DNA of 64,000 nucleotides from a virus. Lineage: Duplodnaviria; Heunggongvirae; Uroviricota; Caudoviricetes. Positions 2,779 through 61,759 of the stretch are shown in pieces. Both the position numbers and the translations under genes were made by a program. The stretch's first letter is position 1. Every line of letters begins with the position of its first letter. The notes under the pieces were generated by a model, which saw nothing but the letters and a program-made list of their open reading frames with translations, searched no databases and had not been told where the DNA came from. The stretch lies in the IMG/VR virus record IMGVR_UViG_3300044678_002996, positions 17,301 through 81,300 of that record; one strand, 5' to 3'.

Positions 2779-3219
2779 TCAGTTGTTTTGCAGTATGGGC
2801 AAACTTTTACCATCTAAAACCTGTCTTCCATGGGTCATTTTAACAGTGTCGCCGTCTGGTGTGACCTCATACCAAATATCTTCCCACGGGCCCCTAAAGG
2901 TAAGGGCCCAAGTGTCACTATGAGATACAACCCTATGCACATTAGTGCGGGGTGTAAACTTAGGCCAGAAAGACGGCCCAAAATTTTTCTTTTCGCCCTG
3001 ATATTTCTCTTCAGTAACAGTGCCCCTCAGGAACCACGTCAGGGCATTAAACGCGTGGGAGTGATAGTTCTCGCGTGACCCCTTCTTGAAGTGTAGTAGC
3101 CCTATGGAGAATAACGCCTTCCACTCTATCAGGAAGTATCCCGTCACGCCAGATTCTTTTCCGCCGTCGAATTTCTTGTAGAAAAATTTCGGAATCCACC
3201 TGTGTTTAAAGAGACTCAT
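2779..3219 (-). CDS. hypothetical protein
   Basis: 146-aa ORF. Confidence 0.45.
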   Translation of the reverse strand: MSLFKHRWIPKFFYKKFDGGKESGVTGYFLIEWKALFSIGLLHFKKGSRENYHSHAFNALTWFLRGTVTEEKYQGEKKNFGPSFWPKFTPRTNVHRVVSHSDTWALTFRGPWEDIWYEVTPDGDTVKMTHGRQVLDGKSLPILQNN

Positions 3220-3397
3220 TCTTCAGCCCCATAACAACTTTCAAGACATTCCCAAGCGTTTGGTAAAGCGTCCCAAACTCCCAGAGGAGCCCCTTGGGGC
3301 ACCTCAAGAAGCAGGTAGAGACAATCCTCCCCATTTACGATACGTTCTGGCAAATTTATTCCGGCCCGCATTGTTTGATATGAAAATCTAAGTAATA

Positions 3398-3685
3398 TCA
3401 TTTTATTTCCCAGTCAAAAATACAATCACTATCAAAGTCAAGTACATCTTCAGGTGTTAGTCCAAATTTTTTCATGGCAAGAACAAATTCCTCTTTTATA
3501 AGCTTATGTCCGCCCAGATCATCTCCGTCAACATATGTACTTTCCCAAACCTCTTTCCACGTGCCAGCGTCGTCGTCAAACTTATAAATCTGCAAATAAG
3601 AATATCCGGGGTCGTAGTAATCATCCCCATAATCAGAACTGCATCCACCAGTCTGTAACTTATACTTATTCATTTTTCTCTCCAA
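3398..3685 (-). CDS. hypothetical acidic protein
   Basis: 95-aa ORF rich in D/Y/G. Confidence 0.4.
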   Translation of the reverse strand: MERKMNKYKLQTGGCSSDYGDDYYDPGYSYLQIYKFDDDAGTWKEVWESTYVDGDDLGGHKLIKEEFVLAMKKFGLTPEDVLDFDSDCIFDWEIK

Positions 3686-3694
3686 TTAAGTTAG

Positions 3695-3809
3695 TGGGCA
3701 AAGTTGGGTTCGAACCAACGAAATTTGTGGCCTCATGAGCTTATAGCCTACCACACAACAGACACTATCCGAAACCTGTTGTTTGCGTAATTCCTCTCGC
3801 CTTTTGCCC
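3695..3809 (-). tRNA. atypical tRNA-like gene (about 115 nt) with a roughly 40-nt insertion
   Basis: Perfect 7-bp acceptor GGGCAAA/TTTGCCC. D-arm GCGAGAGGAATTACGC with GG. Canonical T-arm GTTGG-TTCGAAC-CCAAC. Internal stem CAACAG/CTGTTG carries a 14-nt loop. Confidence 0.4.
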
Positions 3810-3991
3810 GTATGCGGTGTGTGAGACGCATCCCTCTTAGATCACTCGTGAGTCACCAACTGTTAGTGGCACCACAAAGCATCACCCGCACTTTCGTTAA
3901 ACATAATTAGGCCCTCTTATACCACATCATACTTCTGATGAAATTAAGAATGGCGTGAAAAGCTATACACACCCCTAGAAAATACATTGCA

Positions 3992-4468
3992 TTACTCATA
4001 TTTCTTGTAAACCCCGTCTGAGCATAACAGAAACATACCCTCGAAAGAAGAAAAATATCCTAGCCAATCTGCGTGGAACCTATCGCTACCAACAAGTTTT
4101 ACCAATTCTTTATAGTCTTGATCAAACTTATTTGTTACATCTCTTTTACAGTATTTGGGCTCAAACTGTAGTCTAAGGACCAACGATGCCACTTGGTCAG
4201 CTTTTTCTTTGCAAAACGGCCCTATATATTGGACATATCCATCCGTCCGCCCAAAGGTTCCCCCATCGCCATAGATAACCGCAAGCACGTAGGACTTATC
4301 CCCAACGGAACCAAACGTTCCATCGGGGTAATCCATCTTCTTCTCAGAGATATCAAACCAGTGATCGTAATGCTCTTCGTGGCTGAAGCCGCTGTACTCT
4401 GTGCCATCGCCTTCATCATGGTCACTACCTTGGCGAGTTTTGTAGTTACACTTTACATAGAATGTCAT
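3992..4468 (-). CDS. hypothetical protein
   Basis: 158-aa ORF. Confidence 0.45.
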   Translation of the reverse strand: MTFYVKCNYKTRQGSDHDEGDGTEYSGFSHEEHYDHWFDISEKKMDYPDGTFGSVGDKSYVLAVIYGDGGTFGRTDGYVQYIGPFCKEKADQVASLVLRLQFEPKYCKRDVTNKFDQDYKELVKLVGSDRFHADWLGYFSSFEGMFLLCSDGVYKKYE

Positions 4469-4472
4469 ATTA

Positions 4473-4967
4473 CTATCCTGAATAAGGGTTATTATAACCT
4501 ACGTCACAACCACAATCTCCCGTGCCAAATGAAAAGCCTCTTGGCGTTCCGCAGCACGGGCATTTTGGCGAATTCTCTTTGTATACTTTCCAGTATTTTT
4601 CTCTAGAGAGACCCCAAAGTCTATACTCTGTTTCATAAAATTCATTAGTCCCTGTACCACATTTATTGTCTGGGTGTTTGTGATATTTAGAACCTAATAG
4701 TTTGATGTCAATCTTATTACTTTGTCGTGGCCTAGCCGCAGAAAACTTGCTACAAACATGAAGTGTTTGATGATTATGCGTAAATATTTCATCATATAGA
4801 CGCCACTTGCCCTTATGATCTTTGTGCCAGTATAATCCACCTTTGCCGCAGAATTTACAGCTTTTTGATGATGGCCCAATGTTTTCTCTATGATCATATC
4901 CTACATCGTAGTTATCATCATATTCTTCGCCAAAGAAACCATCACCATTTAAGCCACCGTAAAACAT
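4473..4967 (-). CDS. hypothetical Cys/His-rich protein (possible metal-binding)
   Basis: CKFCGKGG...HVC and CPCCG...CGCD clusters. Confidence 0.45.
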   Translation of the reverse strand: MFYGGLNGDGFFGEEYDDNYDVGYDHRENIGPSSKSCKFCGKGGLYWHKDHKGKWRLYDEIFTHNHQTLHVCSKFSAARPRQSNKIDIKLLGSKYHKHPDNKCGTGTNEFYETEYRLWGLSREKYWKVYKENSPKCPCCGTPRGFSFGTGDCGCDVGYNNPYSG

Positions 4968-4972
4968 TTTGT

Positions 4973-6619
4973 TTATCCTTCACAACTCTTACACTCGTTA
5001 ATAGATCTACTCAAAGCTAAGGCTGGGTTGACGCCCTTCTGATAGTAAAATCCCTTAACTCCATTTTCCCACCCGAAGATAAGTAATTGACTTACATCCT
5101 TAGGGGGCGTTTTAGGGTGAATCATCAAGTTAAGGCTTTGGCCCTGATCAATATATTTTTGTCGTTGGGCCGCCAATATAACAACTTCCTTCTGGGAAAT
5201 TTCCCCGAATGTCTTGAACACATTTTTATCATGTTCATCCAAGAAGTCTAGATGTTGTACAGACCCACCGTTAGTTAGGATAGACCGCCAAGTTTCCTCA
5301 TTGTCCTTACTTTTTTCAGCAAGTAATTTCTTAAGGTAAGGGTTTTTGTAGGTGAAGCTGCCCTTTGCCAATTTTTTAACAAAGAAGTTCGAGTCAATGG
5401 GTTCAATGGTTTCACTGACTTGGCCCAAAATAAATGCACTTGATTTAGTTGGGGCAACTGCCATTCTTGTAGCCATTCTTTCGCCTGTTCCCACCATTAA
5501 CTCAGGTTCGCCGTACAACTCAGCCAACTCTTTGGACGCTTCCAGCGTCTGTTGATTAAGTGTCTTGAAAATTTCACCATTAAGATGTTTAGCTTCCATA
5601 CTCTCAAAAGCAATATTCTTACTTTGAAGTAGAGAGTGCCAGCCCAAAACCCCCAAACCTACTGCCCGCTGTCTCTTGGCAAAGTTGTGGGCCGCTGCCA
5701 TATACTTCAGGCCTACAGTCTTATTAATGTACTCGGTAGTCACCGTATCCAAGAAATAAGTCAGAACCTTAACAGCGTCTGTGTCTTTCCACTCATCATA
5801 ATGCAGTAGATTCATCGAGGACAGAACGCAGACAAATGATTCGTCGTCTGTGGCGGACAGATGTATTTCATTACAGAGGTTGCTGGCATGAATACGCTTG
5901 CCCTTGTTCTTATAAACCAGTGGGGCGTTGTTGTTAGAAGTGTCGCTGAAGAATAAGTAGGGATACCCACTCTCAAATCGCTTCTTGATGATCGCCCCCC
6001 AAACTCTGATTTTTTCTTTATCCTTATTCAGTAGTCCTCGCATCCATTCGTCGGAGATACAAACCCCAATAGAGAGATCCTGAATTGGGTTGCCCTCACT
6101 TCGGATTTTAAGGAACTCAAGAATATCTGGATGTTCTACGGGCAGATAGACAGCCATAGATCCCCGCCTAATATTAGACTGAGAAATTACAGAAGTCATC
6201 TTATCAAATAATTCCATGAAGTGTACTGGCCCACTGGACTCTCCACCACTTGAAATCTTCGCCCCACGGGCACGTAAGTCCCCAAAGTAGGCTGACGTTC
6301 CAGCCCCGTACTTCGTCATAAAACCTGTCTCAGCCACCTTGCTGAGAATAGAATCCATTGTGTCATTGATGTAACTTCCGTTACAAGAACACGGTAAACC
6401 TCTATCCAGCCCATAGTTCGCCCATACTGGTGAGCTTAAGGAAAACCATCCTCTACTCATGTATTCTTCGAACTTCGTCGCGTAACCCTCTATATTGAGA
6501 TATTTCTCTGCTGTTTTTGCAATTTCCAGAATTCTTTCTTCAGCAGTTTGGTCTTCGCGGACGTAGCCCCGAGAAAGGAATTCGCGTGATTTTTGATTTA
6601 GCCAGTAGTACTTATTCAT
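4973..6619 (-). CDS. nrdA: ribonucleotide reductase class I large (alpha) subunit, class Ib (NrdE)-like, N-terminally short
   Basis: Active-site NLCNEI motif. SGYPYLFFSDT and AVYLPVEHPDILEFL align to NrdE/NrdA core blocks. C-terminal CxxC tail (CKSCEG). No ATP-cone region present. Confidence 0.9.
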   Translation of the reverse strand: MNKYYWLNQKSREFLSRGYVREDQTAEERILEIAKTAEKYLNIEGYATKFEEYMSRGWFSLSSPVWANYGLDRGLPCSCNGSYINDTMDSILSKVAETGFMTKYGAGTSAYFGDLRARGAKISSGGESSGPVHFMELFDKMTSVISQSNIRRGSMAVYLPVEHPDILEFLKIRSEGNPIQDLSIGVCISDEWMRGLLNKDKEKIRVWGAIIKKRFESGYPYLFFSDTSNNNAPLVYKNKGKRIHASNLCNEIHLSATDDESFVCVLSSMNLLHYDEWKDTDAVKVLTYFLDTVTTEYINKTVGLKYMAAAHNFAKRQRAVGLGVLGWHSLLQSKNIAFESMEAKHLNGEIFKTLNQQTLEASKELAELYGEPELMVGTGERMATRMAVAPTKSSAFILGQVSETIEPIDSNFFVKKLAKGSFTYKNPYLKKLLAEKSKDNEETWRSILTNGGSVQHLDFLDEHDKNVFKTFGEISQKEVVILAAQRQKYIDQGQSLNLMIHPKTPPKDVSQLLIFGWENGVKGFYYQKGVNPALALSRSINECKSCEG

Positions 6620-10703: not shown

Positions 10704-11366
10704 TCATTTTAGAAACTCCAGTATTTGGTCTGATGGGCAGTATAGTACAGATTGTGTCGCAGCGGCCCCAGAGGATTGGACCCCCACTAACTTATCGTTG
10801 TAGAGTACAGCTCCGCCGCTTAGTCCGTCAATAACTTTGCCCTTTAATTTAAGGCACGGAAATCCATTTTCCTTGGTAATGACTTCTTTGTAATTTGGGT
10901 TAGTCATCTCATTCTTAATCATATCTTCAGACAGGGCATACCCATATGAGATATAACCCCGCTCTGCCAGAACAGCAAATTGGGCTAACTCCAAGAATCT
11001 AATATTCTCTTGAGGTTTTTCTGGAAAGTCAAGAATCATTATGTCTCGCTCTGAGTCAAATTTGGTGACTTGCAGCTTATATCTTGCGGACAAGTGTTTG
11101 TCAATGCTGTAGATTGAGCAATTAACTTCTTCTACTTTCTCGGAACCTAAGAGGGCATGCCAACAGGTTATTACTCTAAGTTTTTCAGAATGCTTAATAA
11201 CTGTGCCCGAGAACATTTCTATTCCTGCGGATTTCTCCACAGACAGCTTTACGTGGGGCCAGAAATCTTGAGCAAAAGATTGGGAGGCTAAAAGTAAAAC
11301 AAGCAGTAATGTCCTAATAATCATATCTTGCTTCCTAGTGGTTCTGGGATTGGGCAGTGCCCCCAT
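10704..11366 (-). CDS. secreted trypsin-like (S1) serine protease
   Basis: Signal peptide IIRTLLLVLLLASQSFA. His-motif TCWHAL. Ser-motif GLSGGAV (GDSGGP-like). Confidence 0.6.
   Translation of the reverse strand: MGALPNPRTTRKQDMIIRTLLLVLLLASQSFAQDFWPHVKLSVEKSAGIEMFSGTVIKHSEKLRVITCWHALLGSEKVEEVNCSIYSIDKHLSARYKLQVTKFDSERDIMILDFPEKPQENIRFLELAQFAVLAERGYISYGYALSEDMIKNEMTNPNYKEVITKENGFPCLKLKGKVIDGLSGGAVLYNDKLVGVQSSGAAATQSVLYCPSDQILEFLK
11086..11100 (-). repeat. co-oriented motif copy (TTGCGGACAAGTGT variant)
   Basis: Member of the T-run + GCGGACAATTGT family. Lies inside the protease gene and reads HLSAR in frame. Confidence 0.4.
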
Positions 11367-11541: not shown

Positions 11542-12132
11542 TCATTCTAATTCCCCTCTGTTTTTCCTATACCATTCTACATCATCATGGCCTTTACGCG
11601 CCATCATGTAATCATAAACTTCGTCTTCACTCCAGATTCCGAACCGCCCGCGTATTCTTAAATACGACTCGGGGGCTACGTCTAACATTCTTCGGTCGGC
11701 CCAAATGGAATCCCAATACTGGGATCGTTGGTCGTGCAAATGTCCGTGCAAGTGAAATGACCCGTAGTGAGAACTGGGCCATGCCATATGTGGATAGTGG
11801 CTCATCCAGCATTGTTGGTCTTTTACTTTTCCTGCGTATGTGTGGCGGAACTTATCACCGAATACGGTCTTACACGCTGCATCTGATGGACAATGATTCC
11901 CTTTAATTAGCCAAACATTTTTAGCTTTTATCATTTGTCTGTACCTTGATAAGTCAGATATATCTCCTAGGCAAAAATCTCCTAAAATATAAAGCTCGTC
12001 ACTGCGTTTTGTCGATGTGTTAATTATATCAATCAATGTGATTTCCCATTCTTTTAGAGAAAATCCTTTTCTCTCTGGGAAATTTACAGACTTTTCATGA
12101 TTAAAGTGTAGGTCTGCTGTAAAGTATTTCAT
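11542..12132 (-). CDS. calcineurin-like metallophosphoesterase (phage Ser/Thr phosphatase-like)
   Basis: Motifs DLHFNHE, ILGDFCLGD and GNHC. Confidence 0.7.
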   Translation of the reverse strand: MKYFTADLHFNHEKSVNFPERKGFSLKEWEITLIDIINTSTKRSDELYILGDFCLGDISDLSRYRQMIKAKNVWLIKGNHCPSDAACKTVFGDKFRHTYAGKVKDQQCWMSHYPHMAWPSSHYGSFHLHGHLHDQRSQYWDSIWADRRMLDVAPESYLRIRGRFGIWSEDEVYDYMMARKGHDDVEWYRKNRGELE

Positions 12133-12166
12133 ACAATATTTTCTTAAATAGTTAATAAATTTTAGA

Positions 12167-12183
12167 TTTTGGTGTAATATAGC
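12167..12183 (+). promoter_or_regulatory. conserved TTTTGGTGTAATATA motif upstream of the LAGLIDADG homing endonuclease gene
   Basis: One of three near-identical copies: 12167 (TTTTGGTGTAATATA), 13813 and 27597 (TTTAGTGTAATATA). Each lies 12-48 nt upstream of a plus-strand start codon. Confidence 0.35.
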
Positions 12184-12194
12184 TTGGAGGGATC

Positions 12195-12902
12195 ATGCGT
12201 TCCATAAAACACAGAAAGATTAAAATGCGAAGAGAATTAGTGTACTTACTTGGATATTTTTATGCAGATGGTTATTTGTCGGGTAAAAAATATAAATATC
12301 CTATTTTAGAAATGATCAGATCAGATTCTGAAAATATCATATACTGTTTAGAAAAAATTAATTCCAGATTTACAGTAAGCTATAGATTTAGAAAAAATAG
12401 TAAAAACGAACAAGCGTGCATAAGGCTATCGTCATCTGATGAAAATATTGATCTTTTCAAGAATGTATTGATGGATAAAGTAAATATGTCAAGAATCTTA
12501 AATTTTATCAACAGTGATAATTTTTGTTATTTTTTACGCGGGTTTTTTGACGGTGATGGATGTATTAATATTAGTAAAAACAAAAGTAAAGGGCGAATGT
12601 ATTTTTATGGTTCGTTTGAACAAAGGTGGGAATTGGTTTTTGATATTTTAAAAAAGCTAGAAATCAAATATACTTTTCAACAAATTGTCAGAAAAAATGG
12701 ATCGCACAAAAGCACGCATATTTGTATATCTAACAAGCATGGTATAAATCTTTTGTACGAATACATTTATCCAAATAGAGTTTATGATTTTGGCCTTTTA
12801 AGAAAGTATGAAAAACTGAATTCTATCAAAGGTAATATTAAACATAAGCATATTGTCACACATACAGATTCGCAGATTGCCAGTAAAATAAAAACTTATT
12901 AA
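12195..12902 (+). CDS. LAGLIDADG homing endonuclease (two-motif, free-standing)
   Basis: Two LAGLIDADG motifs, LLGYFYADGYL and LRGFFDGDGCI. AT-rich. Opposite strand to the flanking genes. Confidence 0.8.
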   Translation: MRSIKHRKIKMRRELVYLLGYFYADGYLSGKKYKYPILEMIRSDSENIIYCLEKINSRFTVSYRFRKNSKNEQACIRLSSSDENIDLFKNVLMDKVNMSRILNFINSDNFCYFLRGFFDGDGCINISKNKSKGRMYFYGSFEQRWELVFDILKKLEIKYTFQQIVRKNGSHKSTHICISNKHGINLLYEYIYPNRVYDFGLLRKYEKLNSIKGNIKHKHIVTHTDSQIASKIKTY

Positions 12903-12903
12903 G

Positions 12904-13239
12904 TCAGCCGTATACCATCTCATCTTCTTCTCCATCTATTGTCGAATATGAAGTAGACCCGTCATCCTCAAGGGTCGCTTCCACGACTCCCTTTTCGCAC
13001 AATCTACGTAGAGTGAAATCTACTATTAATCGAGATATTCTATCTCGCAATTCCTCATCTGACACATCAGACTTACAGGATTTTAGGGCGTAATAAGTTA
13101 TGAACTCGCCCACATACCCCTCGAATAACTCCGGCTCATGATCATAAGCAATTAAACACACTTCTAGCATCTGTTCTTCGTTAAGCATAACCCACCAAAT
13201 TCTAGTAAAAGTACGTAAACACACCATTCTCTTAACCAT
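12904..13239 (-). CDS. hypothetical acidic protein
   Basis: 111-aa ORF. Confidence 0.4.
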   Translation of the reverse strand: MVKRMVCLRTFTRIWWVMLNEEQMLEVCLIAYDHEPELFEGYVGEFITYYALKSCKSDVSDEELRDRISRLIVDFTLRRLCEKGVVEATLEDDGSTSYSTIDGEEDEMVYG

Positions 13240-13259
13240 GATAGCTAGTTTGGTGTTTT

Positions 13260-13700
13260 GCAGGGATTAGCCTGAAAGTACCAAAAATTGCAAATGGTTA
13301 AAAGTCCACATATCAAACTGAGCCCGATTTCTAATAGCTATCATAGTGGTTGTGCCGCCAATGTGAGCGGAGGACGCTGGAATTTCACAGACGCCTATTC
13401 ATTACTGAATTCACGAGCTATTACCGAGTCTACGGGATTTCTCCCTACAGGACGTGTTATTTCCTGTTCTCTAAAGCCAGTCTATTGGGCAAATGTCCGC
13501 ACACTCTGTGGGGCTCTGAGAGCCTTGTGGAGTTGACCACCCGATAACCCCTAACGGTTTATCAGCCTGTGGGTGAATTGCGTCAGACGCTTTCCTGTGG
13601 GCCCACAGATGATATTCTCGGCACAATGCCGAAGGTTTGATTTTTTGGACAAATGACCGCATTGATATGCGACACGCAGATTACTCAACGTGGTTGACAG
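13260..13700. ncRNA. candidate structured non-coding RNA (GC-elevated, no credible ORF)
   Basis: About 440 nt containing only short mutually overlapping ORFs. GC is visibly higher than the flanks. Several GC-rich inverted repeats, for example CCTGTGGGCCCACAG. Confidence 0.3.
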
Positions 13701-13812
13701 AGACAGAGTCTCCATAGTATAATACACCAGAGGCGGTCGATTTTTGGCATTTTTTCAGAAAAATTTTGAAAATTCCCAAAAAACATAGGTCTTTGGCAAA
13801 TGTTTTGTTTTT

Positions 13813-13829
13813 TTTAGTGTAATATATAG
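13813..13829 (+). promoter_or_regulatory. TTTTAGTGTAATATATA motif (second copy)
   Basis: Same motif as 12167 and 27597. About 45 nt upstream of the ATG at 13875, followed by an AAGAAGAAA RBS-like tract. Confidence 0.35.
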
Positions 13830-13874
13830 TGGGAAGACATCCCACACTCAAACTTAAAAACGAAAGAAGAAATA

Positions 13875-14201
13875 ATGGCAAGTTACGAATACAGCTCAAG
13901 CAACAACAATAGAGTAGTTACACAGGCTGGGCAAATCATAACGGGAGCTAATACCCCAGACACACGCCAGCACACAAATAAGTACGGGCGAGTTAATGGC
14001 GTTACTGCTATCGATATCCTAACAGGGGCAGTCACTTACAATGCTCTCCAAGGATCTGGTTATGGATTTTCTATTCCATTTACTGGAGTTCCAGCGGATA
14101 AAGAAGTAGATGCCCAAAACGATCCATATAGAGTTCCAGCAAGACTTACTGTTTTGGGTGGAATTAATCCAGTTTCCTATAATCATTCAACAGCTCACTA
14201 A
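13875..14201 (+). CDS. hypothetical protein
   Basis: 108-aa ORF, first gene of the rightward island. Confidence 0.5.
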   Translation: MASYEYSSSNNNRVVTQAGQIITGANTPDTRQHTNKYGRVNGVTAIDILTGAVTYNALQGSGYGFSIPFTGVPADKEVDAQNDPYRVPARLTVLGGINPVSYNHSTAH

Positions 14202-14212
14202 AAGGTAAAAAT

Positions 14213-14464
14213 ATGGACTTTCTTAAAAAACTAAAAGATGTTTTTGCTAAAAGTGTCCCAGACACTTCGCCAAGTGGTAAAGTTGACAGCACTGACTTGG
14301 CAAAAGTTAGCAAGACTGGTGTGCTTGTCGGGGTTGCAGCTACTTTATCATATTTGATAACGACAATTAATCCAGTAGCTCTTGGGCCGTATCAACCTTA
14401 CGTTATGTTGGGTTTGACTATTGGTCTCGATTTTGTAAATAAGCTTATTAAATCTAATTCATAG
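14213..14464 (+). CDS. small membrane protein (holin-like candidate)
   Basis: 83 aa with two hydrophobic helices: VLVGVAATLSYLITTI and VMLGLTIGLDFV. Confidence 0.4.
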   Translation: MDFLKKLKDVFAKSVPDTSPSGKVDSTDLAKVSKTGVLVGVAATLSYLITTINPVALGPYQPYVMLGLTIGLDFVNKLIKSNS

Positions 14465-14473
14465 GAGAAACAA

Positions 14474-14800
14474 ATGCCAGATTATAATGAAATCATAAAA
14501 AGTATCGTGGATAACTGGCAGCTAGCTTTAGGGGCGACCGGCATTGTCGGCGCCCTATTTTTTGATAAAATTAAGGCTAATCTAGCTAAGATTAATTTCT
14601 CAGCAGTAAAGTCTATTTTGCCCAAAAGGAAAGTTACTGCTAAAGATTCTAAAGCGGTCGAAGCTCGTGATATTGAAGCAATTGCCCATCTTAGAGACAG
14701 AGCTGTGGCTTCTGGGGACGAAACATTACTGCAAGAGATTAAGAGTGTAGCTTCTAAGTTTTTTGATATGCACAGCAAAAAAGGAAATACTAATGAGTAA
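14474..14800 (+). CDS. hypothetical protein
   Basis: 108-aa ORF with an N-terminal hydrophobic stretch. Confidence 0.45.
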   Translation: MPDYNEIIKSIVDNWQLALGATGIVGALFFDKIKANLAKINFSAVKSILPKRKVTAKDSKAVEARDIEAIAHLRDRAVASGDETLLQEIKSVASKFFDMHSKKGNTNE

Positions 14801-15221
14801 TTTTCTAAAAGTATTCATCTTAATGGTTTTGGTTTCTGGGTGTGCGAAGCAAGATGTTCCCGCTCCGGCATATAAGATAGAGGTTGTACAGTTAAGCGAG
14901 ATAGCCACTAAGGTTAGAGACGCCGCTAACGAAGATCAAATAAGCAATAAAGACCTTGGGATTTGGTATTCTATCTACAAAGGTACGTATCTTTATGGCA
15001 AAGAGTTTGATTTCGAAGGGCAGAAAGACTTTGGGGTTATCTTTGATAAACAAGTAGCTGTGCGTGATAAACTGATGCCTAATAAAACTGTTAAGTTTAA
15101 AGAGGTGGTGAATTCTGTGTTCGAAAAGTATAAAGAATTGGAATATAACGACACAAATCAAAGCAAATTTCTTGAAGAAGTTTCCTCTATTGCGGATGGA
15201 ATTAAAGCGGGGATTGACTAA
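14793..15221 (+). CDS. lipoprotein (signal peptide + lipobox)
   Basis: Internal Met MSNFLKVFILMVLVSGC gives an LVSGC lipobox. Start chosen at that Met rather than the ORF-track start 14763. Confidence 0.5.
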   Translation: MSNFLKVFILMVLVSGCAKQDVPAPAYKIEVVQLSEIATKVRDAANEDQISNKDLGIWYSIYKGTYLYGKEFDFEGQKDFGVIFDKQVAVRDKLMPNKTVKFKEVVNSVFEKYKELEYNDTNQSKFLEEVSSIADGIKAGID

Positions 15222-16105
15222 TGCCTCATAACAATACAGGCTGGATATCAGATCCAGACACAGTTGATTCAGTTTGTGAATCTTTAACGAATGGCATTTT
15301 TGGGGCAGCAGCCCCTCATTTGCTAAATGAAGGCAAGGGAAAGACCGTACTGCTTTACGAGAGTTACAAAGCAATTGGTATGGAATTTCCTGTATTGAAT
15401 CAGGGGCAGGTTGGAACTTGCACCTCATTCGGTATAGCGGGAAGTGTTGACACCCTTAAAGCAACTGAAATTAAAAAGGGCGAACGTTCAGAATTTAAGA
15501 ACATAACTGCGACTGAGCCTATTTATTATGGGGCTAGAAAGCTAAACGGCTGGCGTATTAACGGAGATGGGGCTTCTGTGGCTCTAGGCGTTAAGTACGT
15601 TGGTACATTCGGCACGGTGGCTCGTGGTAAGTATAATTCAGTTGACCTTAGTAATTATAGCGAGACTAGAAGTCGTCAGTGGGGCAATAACTCCGGATTT
15701 CCTAAAGAAATTGAAGAAATCTCAAAAGATTATATCATTGAGCAATACGCTCGTGTTACTTCTTATGATATGTGTAGAGATTCAATAGCCTCTGGATATC
15801 CAGTAGTAATTGGAAGCAATCAGGGCTTTTCAAATGTGTGTAATAATGATGGAGTAGCTAAGGCCAGTGGAAGCTGGGGTCACTGCATGTTTGCGTGTGG
15901 AATACGGGGCGACAAAGATTTGGTTCTTATCGTAAATAGCTGGGGGCCAAACTGGAATAGAATGCCCGTACGCAAGTTTAATGAGCCGAAGGGTTCATTT
16001 TGGGTAGAGGCCAGTGTTATAGATAGAATGTGCAAGCAGGACGCGTGGAATCTTGCAGCCCACAAGGGATATCCTAAAATAATCAATACGGAAGTAGCTT
16101 GGTAG
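15221..16105 (+). CDS. papain-like (C1 family) cysteine peptidase
   Basis: Catalytic elements in papain order: Q...GTCTSF (Gln/Cys), WGHCMFACG (His), VNSWGPNW (the Asn NSWG motif). Confidence 0.6.
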   Translation: MPHNNTGWISDPDTVDSVCESLTNGIFGAAAPHLLNEGKGKTVLLYESYKAIGMEFPVLNQGQVGTCTSFGIAGSVDTLKATEIKKGERSEFKNITATEPIYYGARKLNGWRINGDGASVALGVKYVGTFGTVARGKYNSVDLSNYSETRSRQWGNNSGFPKEIEEISKDYIIEQYARVTSYDMCRDSIASGYPVVIGSNQGFSNVCNNDGVAKASGSWGHCMFACGIRGDKDLVLIVNSWGPNWNRMPVRKFNEPKGSFWVEASVIDRMCKQDAWNLAAHKGYPKIINTEVAW

Positions 16106-16111
16106 GTAAAA

Positions 16112-17014
16112 ATGAAAAAACTGTTGTTTATAATCGGAATGCTGTTGCTTATAAACAGTGGCATGGAAAAGAGTGACCCAAAGCCCAACATAAACACTAG
16201 CTCATATATTTTTGAGCCAGACTCGTTGGCTATTGCATCTTTGATGAATTTTATGGGCAGTGTAAAAGCCGATGAAGTAGTTTCTTCAGAGTGTAAGTGT
16301 GACAAGTCGACAGGCTTGATATCTTATGATGGCGGTACTTCTAAAACCAAATGCGAGTGTTCTGTGGGCGGAAAGCCTTGTGGATGCGTAAATTGCACCT
16401 CTGGGGCGACTGCCGAAGAAGTTCAGACAGAAACAGTTTCTAGTGGCATAGATGATTCTGTGAAGGCCCTAAAGCGTCTTTACAAGACTTACTACGTTAA
16501 GAAGATGACTGCTTCGTGGTGTGGCCCGTGTGCGACTTGGCAAAAATCAATTTACCCTTCATTTGAATTTTTAGGGATTGAAGTGAAAGAAGTTGATATC
16601 GAGTCTGGTGAAGCTAAGGCTGATGTCAAGCTAATAGAACCAGATGTCGTGCCGTACTTTTTGATTTGCACAAAGACAGATGATTTTTATCATTATAAGT
16701 CTGACAAAGATTTTTTTGGCTATAGGGGTTCAGACTTTTCTGCAGAAAAGGCCACAGAGCTTATGTTCGAGCTTGACTCAGGTCTGCACCCCAATTTGAA
16801 AGAGGGTATTTGGTACGAAAAGGCCCAAAAAGAGCAATCTTCTCTTAACGGCAAAAAGTGGGCAGAAGTTAAGGACTATGTTTCTTACCTAAGAACGTCT
16901 AAAGACAAAGACAAATTCGAAAAATGGCCGCTAGAAAAGCTTTCATTCTACGAACTTAAGGGTATCTTTGACGATCTGCAGGCTGAAAAACTAGGGGTGA
17001 TGCATGGAATTTAG
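16112..17014 (+). CDS. secreted thioredoxin-fold protein (WCGPC) with N-terminal Cys-rich region
   Basis: Signal peptide MKKLLFIIGMLLLINSG. Cys cluster CKCDKS...CECSVGGKPCGCVNC. Thioredoxin active site WCGPCATW. Confidence 0.6.
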   Translation: MKKLLFIIGMLLLINSGMEKSDPKPNINTSSYIFEPDSLAIASLMNFMGSVKADEVVSSECKCDKSTGLISYDGGTSKTKCECSVGGKPCGCVNCTSGATAEEVQTETVSSGIDDSVKALKRLYKTYYVKKMTASWCGPCATWQKSIYPSFEFLGIEVKEVDIESGEAKADVKLIEPDVVPYFLICTKTDDFYHYKSDKDFFGYRGSDFSAEKATELMFELDSGLHPNLKEGIWYEKAQKEQSSLNGKKWAEVKDYVSYLRTSKDKDKFEKWPLEKLSFYELKGIFDDLQAEKLGVMHGI

Positions 17015-57266: not shown

Positions 57267-57273
57267 AAGAAAA

Positions 57274-57358
57274 TGGGCGTGATAGGATTCGAACCTATTA
57301 ACCCCGAAGGGAGAGGATTTACAGTCCCCTGCAGCTCGCCAGCCTCTGCCGCACGCCC
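57274..57358 (-). tRNA. tRNA-Tyr (anticodon GUA), type II with long variable arm
   Basis: Acceptor GGGCGTG/CACGCCC. Anticodon stem GGGGA/TCCTC with loop CTGTAAA. T-arm ATAGG-TTCGAAT-CCTAT. Length 85 nt. Confidence 0.8.
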
Positions 57359-57376
57359 AGCCTAAGCCTTTAGGCT

Positions 57377-57955
57377 TTAGCTCTTCATGATCTCAGGGCT
57401 CTCAATCGTAATCTTCGGCAAGCATGACTTAAACAAGTCCATTGCCTTTTCTGGGTTGTTGTAAGTGTACACGCCACCCACAATCGCCCCTGTCAGTGTG
57501 ACGTAGCGTACCGCCCGCATAATTTTTGTGGCGACCTCAGTCATTGGTTCAAATGCCCAGTAGTTGACTGTACGCCAACCCCACTTACCAGCGAACTTAG
57601 CTACGCCAGTTGCCACTTTAATCGCAGTTGCCTTTTCCATAGTAACCTCTTCTTTCTTGATGAACATAGAAAAGTCCGCCTTACGATCGGCAGACTCAGT
57701 AACAATATCCGCCCTTTTTGGGGCGAACGCCCCTAATAATTTGTGGGCGGCTTCTTCAGTAATCTCGATCCAATCCCCACTCTCAACAAAATGGTCTTTA
57801 TTTCTTGACCATTCTGTTATACACCCGATCTCTCCGTTTTTCTTTACCGCATTAGAAAAACAACCTTTGCGGATTATGTAGGCTGTATCATCGAGCCAGC
57901 CTCTCTTATTCGCGTAATATTTCACCATGTTTTGCCTCTTTTGAAAATTGTTCAA
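57377..57955 (-). CDS. hypothetical protein
   Basis: 192-aa ORF. Confidence 0.45.
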   Translation of the reverse strand: MNNFQKRQNMVKYYANKRGWLDDTAYIIRKGCFSNAVKKNGEIGCITEWSRNKDHFVESGDWIEITEEAAHKLLGAFAPKRADIVTESADRKADFSMFIKKEEVTMEKATAIKVATGVAKFAGKWGWRTVNYWAFEPMTEVATKIMRAVRYVTLTGAIVGGVYTYNNPEKAMDLFKSCLPKITIESPEIMKS

Positions 57956-58106
57956 TCAATTTGGTTTCTTCTTCTTCTCTCTTCTTCAATTCTTCTTCAT
58001 TCATAGACTTTGCTAAAAGTGGAATAAACAAAGAAAGCAAAACGCCTATTATGATTAAAAGACAGAAGATTATGATTGAATTGAAGAGTGTTTGAAGAAA
58101 TCCCAT
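57906..58106 (-). CDS. small membrane protein
   Basis: 66 aa with TM helix IIIFCLLIIIGVLLSLFIPLLA. Confidence 0.35.
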   Translation of the reverse strand: MGFLQTLFNSIIIFCLLIIIGVLLSLFIPLLAKSMNEEELKKREEEETKLIEQFSKEAKHGEILRE

Positions 58107-58108
58107 AA

Positions 58109-58136
58109 GTGGACCCGGCGGGAATTGAACCCGCGT
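58109..58136 (-). other. tRNA 3'-half fragment (T-arm + 3' acceptor strand) lacking a 5' partner
   Basis: GCGGG-TTCAATT-CCCGC followed by CGGGTCCA. No matching 5' acceptor strand within tRNA distance. Confidence 0.3.
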
Positions 58137-58341
58137 CTTGCATAAAAAAGAGCAATAGATTCGTTCACAAGTTTAGGGGCGAACGCCCCGGTTCAAGTGG
58201 ATATTACAGAACGTCCTCAATTTGGATAACAGGGCAATGAGGGGCCCCGAGACTATGCAGCCTGAGCAAAAGTTTTTGCTTTTATTTTTTAATCGACTTT
58301 TAAAGTGGCCGGTCGATCAACCACTACCTGCATCTATTACA

Positions 58342-58746
58342 CTATTTACCAATCAATACCTGTCGGGCCCGTGGTGGCACTTTGTCTGCCTTTTCAAGAT
58401 TACATAATTCACATAACACTTGTCTATTATCTGAAGAGTCTTTCCCTTCTCTTGCTATAGGAATTATATGGTCAACTGTCATAGCGACCAAATCTGCGGA
58501 GACTATCATAATACTCGGAAGAGACTTGTTAGTTCGTGGTTTGCCCACAAATATATAGTCGCCTCTACGAGGGCAATAAGAACATTTAGCCCCCATATTG
58601 ACCACCTGTTTGATTCTCCTTAATTTCCTTCCAAGTGATAGTTCACGAAATACTGCGATATCAAACGGGATTATTCTGTAATCAGAATATTTGATTAACA
58701 GATCAATTTCGGAAGAAAATAGGTTGTCGATACAAGTATTGTCCAT
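58342..58746 (-). CDS. HNH endonuclease
   Basis: CSYCPRRG...VDHIIPIAREGKDSSDNRQVLCELCN (HNH with Zn-ligand cysteines). Confidence 0.7.
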   Translation of the reverse strand: MDNTCIDNLFSSEIDLLIKYSDYRIIPFDIAVFRELSLGRKLRRIKQVVNMGAKCSYCPRRGDYIFVGKPRTNKSLPSIMIVSADLVAMTVDHIIPIAREGKDSSDNRQVLCELCNLEKADKVPPRARQVLIGK

Positions 58747-58748
58747 CT

Positions 58749-59204
58749 CTATTTCCTGAAGTGATTACGCCTTAAGGACATCAAACATTCACCCAACAAG
58801 TTTGTGCCCCACTTTGCTTTGTTCGCGAGGGCATCTTTGGCGGCGAACCCAATACCCAAAATTTTATCTGTGGGCGACGCTTCTACTAGGACTTCATCTT
58901 TCTTGAACGACTCTTCGAGGGCAACCCGGAACTCTTCACACGCACTGAACTTAATCTCAAGGGCAAACATCATTGAGGGGATCTTGAGGTCATCCCATTT
59001 CTCTTCTGAGAAGTTTCTGACCGATCGCCCTGCGTTCTTCGCGTCACGCGGAGTTGGGGCAACTCTTATGTTTTGGAGTGCCACTATGTCGTGGAATGCA
59101 GCCCCTTTGAGGGCCATAAAGATTTTCTCAGAAGTGAAAGCCTCGTTACCATTGATAGGGTGAAAGTTTGAGAAAACTCCGCCCCAGAAGAATTTGTAGT
59201 TCAT
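58749..59204 (-). CDS. NADAR/YbiA-like (DUF1768) domain protein
   Basis: FFWGGVFSNFHP...FTSEKIFMALKG matches the NADAR N-terminal signature. Confidence 0.6.
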   Translation of the reverse strand: MNYKFFWGGVFSNFHPINGNEAFTSEKIFMALKGAAFHDIVALQNIRVAPTPRDAKNAGRSVRNFSEEKWDDLKIPSMMFALEIKFSACEEFRVALEESFKKDEVLVEASPTDKILGIGFAAKDALANKAKWGTNLLGECLMSLRRNHFRK

Positions 59205-59548
59205 TTTTCCGCCGATATTAGGTAGTCTGTAAATGAGTCTGCATACTTAATTCTGTAAGACTCATTTGTGTTTATGGTGTTCCACACTTCCTCACTACAC
59301 GATAAGGTAAGTGTTTTGCCGCCTTTGCATTCAAAAACGGCCATAAACTCAGTCCGCTGGTTGGCCCCGATTTTGGTATATACCTTTGTGCATACGCCCT
59401 CACTTTGTGTTTGATTTCCAAGCCCCAGTGGCCCTAACGCGGGTACTAATAGGGCTATTAGAATACAAGTTATGCCGATTACTACGAGCACCTCAACGAG
59501 AGTAAAGCCGCGTCTAGTCATTCTCAATTGCTCCGGCGAAGGCATCAC
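59201..59548 (-). CDS. type IV prepilin/pseudopilin-like protein
   Basis: Class III signal RRG|FTLVEVLVVIGITCILIALLVPA (G-FTLxE plus a hydrophobic helix). Confidence 0.55.
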   Translation of the reverse strand: MMPSPEQLRMTRRGFTLVEVLVVIGITCILIALLVPALGPLGLGNQTQSEGVCTKVYTKIGANQRTEFMAVFECKGGKTLTLSCSEEVWNTINTNESYRIKYADSFTDYLISAEK

Positions 59549-59747
59549 TTACTCCGTCCTTGTAGAAATTACATAATTCCTTGAATTCCTTCTTGATATC
59601 ATAATCATTTTCGGATAGCACCCAGTCTACAATGATTGTTGGTGTTCCAATAAAAATGACTATCAGTGTGAGTAGTATAATCTCACCGATTGCTCGACAT
59701 GATTTACCCGGAATGTTAAACAAGAACCTCATTGCTTTTTTCATCAT
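59514..59747 (-). CDS. small membrane protein
   Basis: 77 aa with TM IGEIILLTLIVIFIG. Confidence 0.35.
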   Translation of the reverse strand: MMKKAMRFLFNIPGKSCRAIGEIILLTLIVIFIGTPTIIVDWVLSENDYDIKKEFKELCNFYKDGVSDAFAGAIEND

Positions 59748-59753
59748 AATGCA

Positions 59754-60029
59754 TTATTCCTCGTTTTGTTTTTGCGGACAATTGTCAACATCCTCAATGG
59801 ACGTAACGACTGAAGTGGCGAGCAGGCGATAGTCGGCCCATTCGTTGATTTTATCCGTTAGGATCTCGATACGCTGGCCCACCTTAATTACAACTGGGTG
59901 TGTATTTTGGATACTACCCTTGTTTGTGCGGATTTTGCCGGACTCAGTAGAGGTTTCTACTCGTTCCCAAGTTTTAGCAACGAGGTCTATGAGATAGACA
60001 GACCCACTTTCGGTAGTTACTCGTTTCAT
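59754..60029 (-). CDS. hypothetical protein
   Basis: 91-aa ORF. Confidence 0.35.
   Translation of the reverse strand: MKRVTTESGSVYLIDLVAKTWERVETSTESGKIRTNKGSIQNTHPVVIKVGQRIEILTDKINEWADYRLLATSVVTSIEDVDNCPQKQNEE
59768..59786 (-). repeat. co-oriented motif copy TTTTTGCGGACAATTGT (intergenic, about 20 nt upstream of the start at 59747)
   Basis: Exact core, followed on the mRNA strand by GAGGA and ATGATG. Confidence 0.45.
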
Positions 60030-60040
60030 TGATCAAACTT

Positions 60041-60556
60041 CTAGCTGTATAGCTCAAAGATATCAAGGGCCAGATTTCTCAGCTCTTGTTCAAGCTCCAC
60101 GTCAACTCCAGTAAGACACTCGTCTAACAGAAGAATAGATTCCTTGGCGTAGACAATAGCGAATCCGTCGCTTTCGGGCATTTCGTAGAGGTTATCAATT
60201 CGGTCGATTAGCTTAACAAGCTTTGATTCCGTCCGAATACCCTTGATTTTTTCCCGATTAGCTTTCTTTCGTTCAGCCCGATTGCCTTTGACATCTTTGT
60301 CGTTAGTGAGGTCTTCTACATATCCCTCTACTATGTGCCCAAAACAGAGGGCGATTTCAGACAGTTTTACACCGCAGTCTTCTACAACATCATGCAGAAA
60401 GGCCGCTGCTACCAATTGATTTGTAGCCATCCCATGAGTAGCTACGCGGCCCGCGACGCGAATCGGGTGTGTAATGTAGGGCCTGTTACTGTATTTACGC
60501 TTTTGCCCTTTGTGTTTTTCGGCGGCAAATTGGGCTGCATCAATGATTAATTCCAT
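60041..60556 (-). CDS. HD-domain small alarmone hydrolase ((p)ppGpp hydrolase, SpoT/Mesh1-like)
   Basis: AEKHKGQKRKYSNRPYITHPIRVA...AAAFLHDVVED matches the RelA/SpoT HD hydrolase N-terminus (HxGQxR...PYIxHP...HDxxED). Confidence 0.65.
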   Translation of the reverse strand: MELIIDAAQFAAEKHKGQKRKYSNRPYITHPIRVAGRVATHGMATNQLVAAAFLHDVVEDCGVKLSEIALCFGHIVEGYVEDLTNDKDVKGNRAERKKANREKIKGIRTESKLVKLIDRIDNLYEMPESDGFAIVYAKESILLLDECLTGVDVELEQELRNLALDIFELYS

Positions 60557-60557
60557 T

Positions 60558-60746
60558 TCAACCCCACACTAAAGCACAAATGGCAAACACTATGAACGCC
60601 ATTGATATGACGAATTTGATAAGGCCAGAGAGGCCAGAGATTCCTACGTCTCCGTTATCATCAGCTACGCCGACAATAAACAATAGAATTCCAAGACAGG
60701 CGTTCATTATCCAGAAAATCAGCGAGAGTATTACGAAAGCTTTCAT
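60558..60746 (-). CDS. small membrane protein
   Basis: 62 aa, two TM helices. Confidence 0.35.
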   Translation of the reverse strand: MKAFVILSLIFWIMNACLGILLFIVGVADDNGDVGISGLSGLIKFVISMAFIVFAICALVWG

Positions 60747-60778
60747 ACCAACTCCTTAAATCATTGGACGAAGTCCCA

Positions 60779-60849
60779 AAGGGCGGGAAGGATTCGAACC
60801 TTCGCTACTGGAATCAAAATCCAGTGTGCTACCGTTACACCACCGCCCT
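60779..60849 (-). tRNA. tRNA-Gln (anticodon UUG)
   Basis: Acceptor AGGGCGG/CCGCCCT. Anticodon stem CTGGA/TCCAG with loop TTTTGAT. T-arm GAAGG-TTCGAAT-CCTTC. Confidence 0.8.
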
Positions 60850-60860
60850 ACGTAGCTAAG

Positions 60861-61328
60861 CTACTTTATGAATTCCTGAATTTGGGGTCGATCTGCTCGC
60901 CCCCAGATTGCCATACAAAACGGAATAGACGGATACGATCTCCACCATACGATCAGGGCTGGATCAATTGGGGCCTTAGGGGCAGTCTGAATTGCCCACT
61001 CACTCTCTTTGTAAAGAATAGCCATACCCACCGCTTTGGCTTTATTGGTCTGATCGTTAACCATTTCCCGTACCCTTTGGGGCAGAATTGGAAATGATTT
61101 TGGAGTTGCCCGCTCTATTTTGTTTGGGAGTGACCGCCCAACCCGTATTTCTATGTTGTCAGAGCTATAACTGTGTATAGAAGGAACAACATAGGTGCCG
61201 CTCTGACGAATATATGACCGCTCCAAACGATCGTGCGGCGAAGCTAAGGCCAGATTGGCATCCCGTCTTTGTCTCGGGCAGATAGCAGTAGCCCCAAATC
61301 GATTTGTTGGCTTCTCGCAAGAATCCAA
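60861..61328 (-). CDS. hypothetical protein
   Basis: 155-aa ORF. Confidence 0.4.
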   Translation of the reverse strand: MDSCEKPTNRFGATAICPRQRRDANLALASPHDRLERSYIRQSGTYVVPSIHSYSSDNIEIRVGRSLPNKIERATPKSFPILPQRVREMVNDQTNKAKAVGMAILYKESEWAIQTAPKAPIDPALIVWWRSYPSIPFCMAIWGRADRPQIQEFIK

Positions 61329-61525
61329 CTCAGATCTTCTTGTGATTCGCGTGATTTATCCAAGACATTAGCGTAATCACATTCTGCTGATGTTCCCTGT
61401 CTTAGGGTTTTGATATATTCCTTATCCACTGGCTCGCTGGATTTTATTTGGCATTCCATCAGGGCATTGCCGATTGGATCGTTGTTAACAGCTACTGGAG
61501 CAGGCTTTTTCCATAGTCCGAACAT
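61244..61525 (-). CDS. hypothetical protein
   Basis: 93-aa ORF overlapping its neighbour. Confidence 0.3.
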   Translation of the reverse strand: MFGLWKKPAPVAVNNDPIGNALMECQIKSSEPVDKEYIKTLRQGTSAECDYANVLDKSRESQEDLSWILARSQQIDLGLLLSARDKDGMPIWP

Positions 61526-61686
61526 TAGAAGTCCTCACAAATTTACTTGCAAAAGTTATCACGTGGGATTTCAATCATGGTGTCACAGTTATATCATCAT
61601 AATGTTTGTGAGACTCGATTTTAAGAGTTCGCCCGTCTTTTAGGCGGATGACTAAAGTTCTGTACTCACTCACTGGAACAAATAAA

Positions 61687-61759
61687 TGGTGCCGCTGAGA
61701 CTTGAACTCAGGTCTTCGGATTTAAAAGATCCGTGTAATAGCCACTATACTACGACACC
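61687..61759 (-). tRNA. tRNA-Lys (anticodon UUU)
   Basis: Acceptor GGTGTCG/CGGCACC. Anticodon stem CGGAT/ATCCG with loop CTTTTAA. T-arm CTGAG-TTCAAGT-CTCAG. Confidence 0.8.

Follow-up and report, generated by a model that had tools for sequence, protein, structure and literature searches.

The window analyzed here, a stretch of 64 kb of DNA, is part of the 68-kb Logan metagenomic contig SRR27430807_157878 of a large phage and encodes tRNA genes, a transfer-messenger RNA (tmRNA) gene, and a ribonucleotide reductase. Most of its genes lie on the minus strand, and a small island of plus strand genes extends from 13875 to ~17500. A gap of 686 nt separates the last leftward gene from this island and contains a block of ~435 nt (13214 to ~13650) that is a structured non-coding RNA, with base pairs kept by compensatory change. 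The fold comprises 16 helices, including a multi-way junction (P0, P1, P3–P5) and a candidate pseudoknot. We tentatively favor the reading that the block is the minus strand 5ʹ leader, ~520 nt in length, of the leftward operon. An initial annotation of the same DNA had proposed a structured RNA at 13260–13700; its bounds are revised here according to homology and conservation, and the proposal itself is borne out by conservation, by a diverged homologue, and by compensatory changes far above controls.

A conserved non-coding RNA kept by compensatory change

Related contigs were gathered via two flanking proteins, and one more (L031) was added by a motif scan. The block is carried by seven distinct variants of the window's own subclade (the window group), of which six are full-length and 91–99% identical to the window across the block, and one, L031, is partial (window 13142–13564) with 96% identity. 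Positions 1–33 of L031 (ERZ869921 NODE-5049), at the end facing window 13564, are Illumina adapter (AGATCGGAAGAGCGTCGTGTAGGGAAAGAGTGT), an assembly artefact, and were masked. Across 4.3 kb in five variants, the fraction of invariant columns was above 0.9 for the element as a whole and 0.88–0.98 over 13144–13503, compared to 0.6–0.7 in the genes on both sides, indicating that the block is under stronger constraint than coding DNA.

Upstream of the same island, a collinear homologue (L025 3115–3483) is present in a second lineage, L025/L026, which is far more distant; it was detected in pieces by blastn and with E = 1e-83 by nhmmer. The homology begins and ends at window 13214–13650, and the conserved U-rich tail stops at ~13650. 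The island proteins of this lineage share 36–69% identity with those of the window. The two blocks are 66% identical over 289 alignable columns, and the neighboring genes show 50–65% nucleotide identity, which fits long co-divergence and not recent transfer.

Block-free lineages (L017–L020, L027–L030, L034, and L021–L024) have only ~150–215 nt at the locus, with no trace of the element in the 2–10 kb examined, and L021–L024 lack it although they are close to L025. As several related lineages are without it, the element is accessory. When both blocks were compared with 50,697 phage records by blastn in distant mode, nothing similar was found in cultured phages, and scans of IMG/VR, GTDB genomes, and JGI metagenomes with proteins, conserved 16–22-mers, and a gapped motif gave L031 as the only real match. 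Thirty-three IMG/VR loci matching two 16–18-mers proved to be chance matches, in which nhmmer found nothing.

The block is non-coding. The initial annotation had described an ORF-poor stretch, and the gap between the leftward and the rightward gene indeed holds only short (30–82 aa), mutually overlapping open reading frames (ORFs), none of them credible. TAA, TAG, and TGA are all present in each of the six frames, so that stop-codon reassignment cannot rescue a gene; a recoded gene, considered on account of a tRNA called by ARAGORN in the window with the four-base anticodon ttca (the last three bases of which would read UGA), was therefore rejected. Among relatives, the block shows 1-nt indels. 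Translations of its ORFs gave no significant Pfam match, and the best PHROG match (phrog_32113, E = 0.004, obtained with an ORF of L025) did not recur when phages were searched with tblastn.

It is highly improbable, in our judgment, that the block holds no functional RNA and is instead a decayed gene or a spacer kept similar by recent recombination. Such an origin would suit the small set of related contigs from two lineages and the close similarity of six of the seven window-group variants. However, the diverged L025 copy keeps the helices through at least 12 double substitutions, no ORF is shared between the lineages, and the block is more conserved than its coding flanks, with substitutions that follow helices, not codons; the decayed, frameshifted gene that the initial annotation had set against its own proposal is thus not what the relatives reveal.

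The GC content of the block is 0.46–0.47, compared to a window mean of 0.42 (standard deviation 0.039), and 12% of segments of equal length are as GC-rich. The elevation, at first described as clear, holds against the adjacent AT-rich DNA, mainly the homing-endonuclease gene on the left (0.25–0.30) and the promoter region on the right (0.33 at 13700–13900), but is modest against the window as a whole. In L025, the contrast is larger (0.48 vs. 0.34).

An uncurated MAFFT alignment folded with RNAalifold yielded 122 pairs, 10 of which were changed on both sides with pairing kept. For the curated alignment, the two lineages were aligned by hand, segment by segment, on the anchors UUAC, GGGAUUUCUCCCU, CUCUA..GCCAGUC, UAACGGU, and the 3ʹ tail; arbitrarily aligned parts of L025 were masked, and double changes were counted both between the lineages and within the window group. 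This alignment contained 100 pairs in 14 helices (95.6% paired) with 15 double changes, compared to 2.8 ± 1.4 in shuffles (0 of 500) and 1–3 when the partners were slid by 1–3 columns. With two long-range helices added, 108 pairs carried 17 double changes, compared to 3.0 ± 1.4 in shuffles (0 of 500) and 1–3 in slid controls, and 94.8% of the cells were paired. The consensus energy was ~5 standard deviations below that of column shuffles (z = -5.3 on the plus strand and -4.8 on the minus strand).

The clearest cases do not depend on any freedom of alignment. P7, with four covarying pairs, is part of a 28-nt stretch that has no gaps and is bordered by invariant flanks; the tetraloop of P5 is unchanged while four of its five pairs change; and changes affect two of four pairs in P3 and one each in P12, P2, and P4. 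Microvariation within the subclade adds one compensatory pair each in P2.1 (U-A to C-G at 13250/13284, in L031) and P9 (in L011), as well as two more in P7 (13452/13462 in L003, L011, and L031; 13447/13467 in L011). The coordinates of the helices and of the neighboring signals are listed in Table 1.

Table 1. Coordinates of the RNA element, its helices, and the adjacent gene and promoter signals in the window
Feature	Position	Strand	Remarks
Whole conserved structured element	13214..13650	minus favored, plus the main rival	L025 homology, conservation, fold z, 17 double changes
P0 (tentative)	13215-13222 with 13426-13433		Candidate closing helix of a multi-way junction enclosing P1-P5
P1	13232-13238 with 13347-13353		Five Watson-Crick pairs and one U·G invariant in both lineages
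P2 core	13239-13243 with 13339-13343		U-A to C-G between lineages; recovered as inverted repeat I2
P2.1	13249..13285		15-bp hairpin; window group only, insertion absent from L025
Px (tentative)	13332-13338 with 13417-13423		Candidate pseudoknot; would tie the P2 loop to the P5-P0 strand
P3	13355..13370		Hairpin; CCGC/GCGG in the window, UUGC/GCAA in L025; two compensatory pairs
P4	13373..13395		Hairpin with bulged A; one compensatory pair, G-C to A-U
P5	13397..13410		Hairpin; invariant tetraloop UUAC on plus, GUAA (GNRA) on minus; four of five pairs compensatory
P6	13434..13445		Hairpin GGGA-UUUC-UCCC; on minus GGGA-GAAA-UCCC with GNRA tetraloop; invariant in 8 of 8 sequences including L025
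P7	13447..13467		Hairpin, 6 bp, 9-nt loop; four of six pairs changed on both sides, between lineages and within the window group
P8	13487-13498		Hairpin
P9	13503-13533		Hairpin; within the window group one compensatory pair and six one-side-varying pairs, mostly G·U to Watson-Crick
P10	13543..13563		Hairpin; conserved loop C(C/U)UAAC
P10.1	13580-13590		Window group only; all its variation in the loop
P11	13595-13608		Contains CCTGTGGGCCCACAG; L025 keeps UGUG-CUGU-CACA
P12	13618-13632		Hairpin, then U-rich tail TTTGATTTTTT at 13636-13646; terminator-like on plus only
First leftward-operon gene	12904..13188	minus	94 aa; Shine-Dalgarno GGUGGG at 13191-13196, read in the sequence
Leftward promoter-like site GGTGTATTATACTATGGAG	13708..13731	minus	16 bits in position-weight scan; resembles leftward promoters of block-free relatives
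Perfect sigma-70 promoter TTGACA-18-TATAAT	13694..13723	plus	Only one in the 64-kb window; 0.1 expected by chance
Rightward phage-type promoter motif TTTAGTGTAATATATAGTGGGAAG	13813..13836	plus	Before the 108-aa gene; in every related lineage

The candidate closing helix P0 forms 8 bp with a 1-nt bulge in L025 and has one compensatory pair (C-G to A-U); in the window group it contains an A·C at 13218/13430 that reads G·U on the minus strand. The seventh, outermost pair of P1 is formed only in L025. A 4-bp extension of P2 (13244–13247 with 13335–13338) competes with Px, which has 7 bp in the window, or 8 when 13339/13416 (also used by the P2 core) is counted, and five contiguous Watson-Crick pairs with one A-U to G-C change in L025. 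At 13374/13394 in P4, four of the seven window-group sequences, including the window, have A·C on the plus strand (G·U on the minus strand) and the other three have U·C. At the positions of P8 and P9, L025 forms different hairpins (3360–3369 and 3378–3397), which were excluded from the counts. In P12, a C-G pair is changed to G-C in L025. The two inverted repeats that the initial annotation had pointed out are present, CCTGTGGGCCCACAG at 13594–13608 in P11 and GGCACAATGCCGAAGG at 13620–13635 in P12.

By reading of the sequences, the loop of P10 may kiss that of P7 (UAAC with GUUA); this contact, as well as P0 and Px, is tentative. Two further pairings were left out. For a 5ʹ–3ʹ helix between the U-rich tail and AUCAAAC (13312–13318), the similar 7-bp helix of L025 is ~20 nt out of register, and a start-codon-sequestering repeat, GUUAAG/CUUAAC (13231–13236 with 13180–13185), is absent from L025.

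The motif TTGG(G/A)CAAATG(T/A) occurs three times around the block (13485–13496, 13645–13656, and 13792–13803, with spacings of 160 and 147 nt), the first copy forming hairpin P8. Allowing one mismatch, it has 13 matches in the window against 7 ± 2.5 expected, which is not a significant enrichment.

These spaced copies, the position between divergent transcription units next to the AT-rich stretch at 13700–13900, and the symmetry of hairpin covariation between the strands would each suit an element acting at the level of DNA, such as a replication origin, a single-strand initiation site, or a packaging site with hairpins in single-stranded DNA. We consider an element of this kind very unlikely, given that close relatives are without it at the locus (L021, L017–L020, L027–L030, and L034) and an essential origin is not expected to come and go. 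The lack of enrichment of the motif also speaks against it, and multi-way junctions, conserved tetraloops, and pseudoknots are typical of RNA, not of origins.

Strand assignment and a candidate role as operon leader

The signals around the block were compared with those of block-free relatives, which have two divergent TGTAATATAT-type promoters ~90 nt apart; in L017, L018, L021, and L027, the leftward copy lies ~40 nt before the first leftward gene. The full clade motif, TGTAATATAT(A/T)(G/A)T(G/A)GG, is found on the plus strand of the window at 12168, 13813, and 27599, before the plus strand genes at 12195, 13875, and 27655, and in both orientations in relatives (it was found in L017, L018, L021, L025, L027, L031, L034, and L035). 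The many minus strand genes of the window are without it at that score. The motif of the rightward promoter that had been placed at 13813 is conserved in every related lineage.

Both the window (13731 minus/13813 plus) and L025 (3820 minus/3947 plus) keep the promoter pair, with the block between the leftward site and the leftward genes. The leftward site of the window is one of only four that reach 14 bits or more, lies 82 nt from the rightward copy, and by reading agrees with the leftward promoter of L021 at 15 of 18 positions; its counterpart in L025 is at 3820–3797. The -10 hexamer of the perfect sigma-70 promoter overlaps the leftward site on the other strand (GGTGTATTATACTATGG). The same overlap is seen in L025, where TTAAAA-18-TATAAT at 3783–3812 meets the minus strand site, and the overlapping sites may be a pair of mutually exclusive divergent promoters.

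As the block is flanked by the leftward promoter-like site on one side and by the first leftward gene on the other, a cis-acting 5ʹ leader is at least as likely as a free-standing RNA, and if the site at 13731–13708 fires, every leftward transcript carries the block as a leader of ~520 nt. The loops of the hairpins point the same way. The only two invariant tetraloops read GUAA (P5) and GAAA (P6) on the minus strand, both GNRA, and the chance that a random tetraloop is GNRA is 1/32. In the helices shared by the two lineages, the wobble cells favor the minus strand by 15 to 9, including those in P0 (window group) and P4. The terminator scan found no terminator-like site on the minus strand of the block, and no promoter-like site of sigma-70 or phage type was found on the plus strand of the window upstream of it.

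We infer the strand, the promoter, and each functional step as follows. Transcription would proceed leftward from the site at 13731–13708, and the RNA would begin with the row of hairpins from P12 to P6. It would end in a compact domain, a junction of P1/P2, P3, P4, and P5 that is closed by P0, braced by the candidate pseudoknot Px and carrying the GNRA tetraloops GAAA and GUAA; P0 would end ~18 nt before the Shine-Dalgarno sequence of the first leftward gene. A compact junction with GNRA loops and a pseudoknot at this place has the look of leaders that bind a ligand, a protein, or a polymerase. The fold might thus control the operon in cis by binding a protein, a small ligand, or RNA polymerase, with changed translation initiation, mRNA stability, or read-through as the output. 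We leave the type of output broad because inspection revealed no conserved alternative pairing (expression platform) and because the first ORFs are unrelated.

The initial annotation had extended the first leftward gene to 13239, which would give an ORF of 111 aa. The start is most likely ATG 13188, since it is preceded by GGTGGG and the resulting 94-aa form is the choice of the gene callers in most relatives, whereas ATG 13239 is without a Shine-Dalgarno sequence, is GTG in L025, and falls within helices P1/P2.

A number of observations weigh against the leader. The match of the leftward site is weak, at 16 bits in the window and 14 bits in L025 compared to 20–35 bits at other sites, and part of its score is owed to the near-palindromic TATAAT of the plus strand promoter. 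The first leftward ORFs of the window and L025 are not homologous, which is at odds with a gene-specific leader, and by our own count the single transitions away from Watson-Crick pairs are divided 5 to 5 between the strands. In addition, the sampling includes only two deep lineages, and the alignment between them was curated by hand with pairing in mind.

The remaining objections are those that support the main rival, a free-standing RNA gene on the plus strand. Such an RNA would start at ~13205–13235, upstream of P0/P1, contain the same helices, and end at ~13640–13646 at P12 and its U-tract; it could act in trans as a scaffold, a decoy, or a ribozyme, or pair in antisense with the leftward leader. 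Canonical pairing in the helices amounts to 94.8% on the plus strand and 89.9% on the minus strand, and the structure conservation index is 0.75 compared to 0.70. P2.1 is a flawless 15-bp helix on the plus strand, where independent changes in L003 and L032 give G·U pairs that would be mismatches on the minus strand. The outer part of P9 also works better on the plus strand, with G·U pairs there becoming Watson-Crick in L003, L011, and L031. P12 with TTTGATTTTTT passes the plus strand terminator scan in the window, and the L025 homology stops just after this tail. In L025, three weak sigma-70-like plus strand sites lie upstream of the copy, one of which (TTGGCA-17-TACCAT at 3100–3128) ends 4 nt before P1, and by reading of the sequence a hairpin followed by a U-run on the plus strand lies downstream.

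Against a free-standing RNA, the window group has no sigma-70 or phage-type plus strand promoter-like site upstream of the block. The L025 copy of P12 fails the U-tract criterion, being left unflagged by the terminator scan with too few T in its tail CTTGATTTGTT, and the sequence of the tail is conserved, although a plain terminator would not require this. On the plus strand, the invariant tetraloops become UUAC and UUUC, for which we know of no stable loop class; it is their complements that are GNRA. P0 and P4 would contain A·C mismatches in the window group.

Other measures do not settle the strand. Single-sequence folding energies do not separate the two (z = -0.8 to -2.9), and the wobble counts are split by helix and by lineage. 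It might be that both strands are transcribed, with a convergent rightward RNA that targets the leftward leader and a duplex that is processed to time the expression of the operon. This would account for a promoter-like site on the minus strand together with a terminator-like site on the plus strand, for the divided wobble evidence, and for the finding that both strands fold far better than shuffled alignments. Antisense control, however, needs complementarity and not 16 helices preserved by compensatory change. Considering that the signals are split between the strands, we hold the minus strand leader to be a tentative first choice, think a stand-alone plus strand RNA rather unlikely, and find transcription of both strands improbable.

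Comparison with known RNA families and systems

The window and L025 blocks were searched on both strands with cmscan against all 4227 families of Rfam 15 (E ≤ 10). Only chance-level matches were returned (SNORA46, STnc410, Histone3, and mir-1246), and RNase P RNA, tmRNA, group I and group II introns, known riboswitches, and known large ornate RNAs therefore fail as families to which the block could belong. The initial annotation had assigned the RNA to no class and had found neither RNase P RNA nor tmRNA, and we agree on both points, as no Rfam family matches either lineage on either strand.

For RNase P RNA, where no covariance-model match was found at E ≤ 10 on either strand of the window or L025 block, the segment AAAGUCC at 13302–13308 is, by reading, without a complementary CR-V-like partner and is absent from L025; a P4 helix was likewise rejected by reading. 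ARAGORN and Rfam find no tmRNA in the block, only one at 58107–58370 on the minus strand. With its gathering thresholds, Rfam reports nothing in the window but four tRNAs and this tmRNA, all outside the block. A group I intron (RF00028) has no Rfam match here; the block lies between divergent genes, block-free relatives show no joined exons, and a P7/P3 core was rejected by reading the sequence. A group II intron (RF00029) likewise has no match, and no reverse transcriptase is encoded among the ten neighboring proteins scanned (11542–17014 and 10704–11366). No covariance-model match to GOLLD, ROOL, OLE, HEARO, or raiA was obtained on either strand in either lineage, nor any match to the aptamer models of known riboswitch classes. 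A CsrB-like GGA sponge was also rejected by reading, with ~8–9 GGA motifs compared to ~6 expected.

In kind, the block resembles OLE, GOLLD, ROOL, HEARO, and raiA in its length of several hundred nt, its many covariation-supported helices, its conserved loops and junctions, and its being found only by comparison. GOLLD and ROOL often occur in phage genomes, as the block does (PMC12286853). It differs from these RNAs in location, with a promoter-like site on one side and an operon on the other instead of adjoining tRNA genes, and its only known carriers are a small number of related metagenomic contigs.

Riboswitches and protein-binding leaders (the lysine, cobalamin, and M-box riboswitches; the T4 gene 32 and gene 43 operators) offer a second comparison, if the minus strand is the one transcribed. 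The likeness consists of a junction domain of ~220 nt closed by P0, the 3ʹ strand of which lies ~18 nt before the Shine-Dalgarno sequence, the GNRA tetraloops, the candidate pseudoknot, and a position downstream of a promoter-like site (a weak match) without a minus strand terminator inside. The differences are that no known family matches, that no conserved alternative pairing was found by inspection, that the first downstream genes differ between the lineages, and that the junction is preceded by another 210 nt of conserved hairpins.

Viral intergenic regions have been predicted to hold thousands of candidate structured RNAs (Fremin, Bhatt and Kyrpides 2023, PMC10690425). The block shares with them covariation support, an intergenic position in a phage, and a possible cis-regulatory place upstream of genes, but is far larger; as this phage clade was not found in the IMG/VR scans, the block is unlikely to be in that catalogue. 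ColE1 RNA II/RNA I is similar in being a structured transcript of ~400–550 nt with several stem-loops, in the possibility that transcription converges over one end, and in its candidate loop-loop contacts. It differs in that the block shows no sign of an origin, an RNase H site, or a counter-transcript and that close relatives do without the block.

Genomic surroundings and biological meaning

A conserved 670-aa protein of the window reaches only ~42–44% identity with proteins of SPO1-like Bacillus phages and ViI-like enterobacterial phages. The leftward operon contains the 94-aa gene, a phosphoesterase, a protease, AAA ATPases, and the ribonucleotide reductase, and is longer than 13 kb.

Between the phosphoesterase and 94-aa genes, on the strand opposite to its neighbors, lies a free-standing LAGLIDADG homing-endonuclease gene (12195–12902, plus strand), with the 12168 copy of the phage promoter motif in front of it. 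The gene is missing from the closest relatives (L002–L016), the more distant L018 and L027–L029 have it at the same spot, and in L034 a LAGLIDADG gene lies beside the phosphoesterase gene, a presence/absence polymorphism typical of homing. The gene is unrelated to the block, as it is absent from close block carriers and present in relatives without the block.

On the other side, the first island gene (13875–14201) and its homologues P0008–P0034 encode a conserved protein without family assignment, of 108–112 aa in most lineages and 164–170 aa in some, with invariant GSGY and DKEVDA..DPYRV motifs. It is followed by genes for a small membrane protein, a lipoprotein-like protein, and a peptidase. 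A C39/C1-like peptidase of 294 aa is encoded at 15221–16105 in the window, and the product of the gene at this position is 427–664 aa in relatives. The long forms, in L017–L019 (5342–7336 / 3033–5027) and in L027–L030 (the 427-aa gene), have weak or faint Hint/intein matches, and the 664-aa form has a faint LAGLIDADG match in addition, which suggests that an intein may be inserted in this gene in some lineages.

The phage's own tmRNA (71.5 bits and E = 8e-26 with Rfam; tag peptide AKTFAQAA* by ARAGORN) is located among tRNA genes at 57273–61759. A tRNA-like gene at 1386–1459 on the minus strand has, according to ARAGORN, the four-base anticodon ttca in an apparent 8-nt anticodon loop and reaches only 32 bits with Rfam; the gene may specify a suppressor or frameshift tRNA, or it may have degenerated.

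Few natural RNAs exceed ~300 nt and combine many covarying helices with junctions and pseudoknots, and those large RNAs that are understood (ribozymes, riboswitches, scaffolds of ribonucleoproteins, and the cage-forming GOLLD and ROOL) have each taught new biochemistry. It is possible, although we think it doubtful, that the block represents a new class of large, complex-fold RNA with an active biochemical role in an uncultivated clade of large myovirus-like phages. Candidates for such a role are a riboswitch for a so far unrecognized ligand in front of a replication and nucleotide-metabolism operon, a polymerase-modifying RNA that promotes read-through of an operon of at least 13 kb, and a ribozyme. 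Candidates for structured RNAs are common in phage intergenic regions (PMC10690425), but one of 435 nt with 16 helices, a multi-way junction, conserved tetraloops, and no family is uncommon. In kind, the block stands nearest to the large ornate RNAs (PMC12286853). The main risks lie in the thin phylogenetic sampling and the strand assignment.

The block sits at the point from which two divergent transcription units of a large phage are controlled and, depending on the strand, either precedes the replication and nucleotide-metabolism genes or lies opposite them. The structural model is concrete enough for experimental testing, and the presence or absence of the element among close relatives offers natural plus/minus comparisons. 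The block may offer the phage a new means of timing or tuning its early-to-middle programme.

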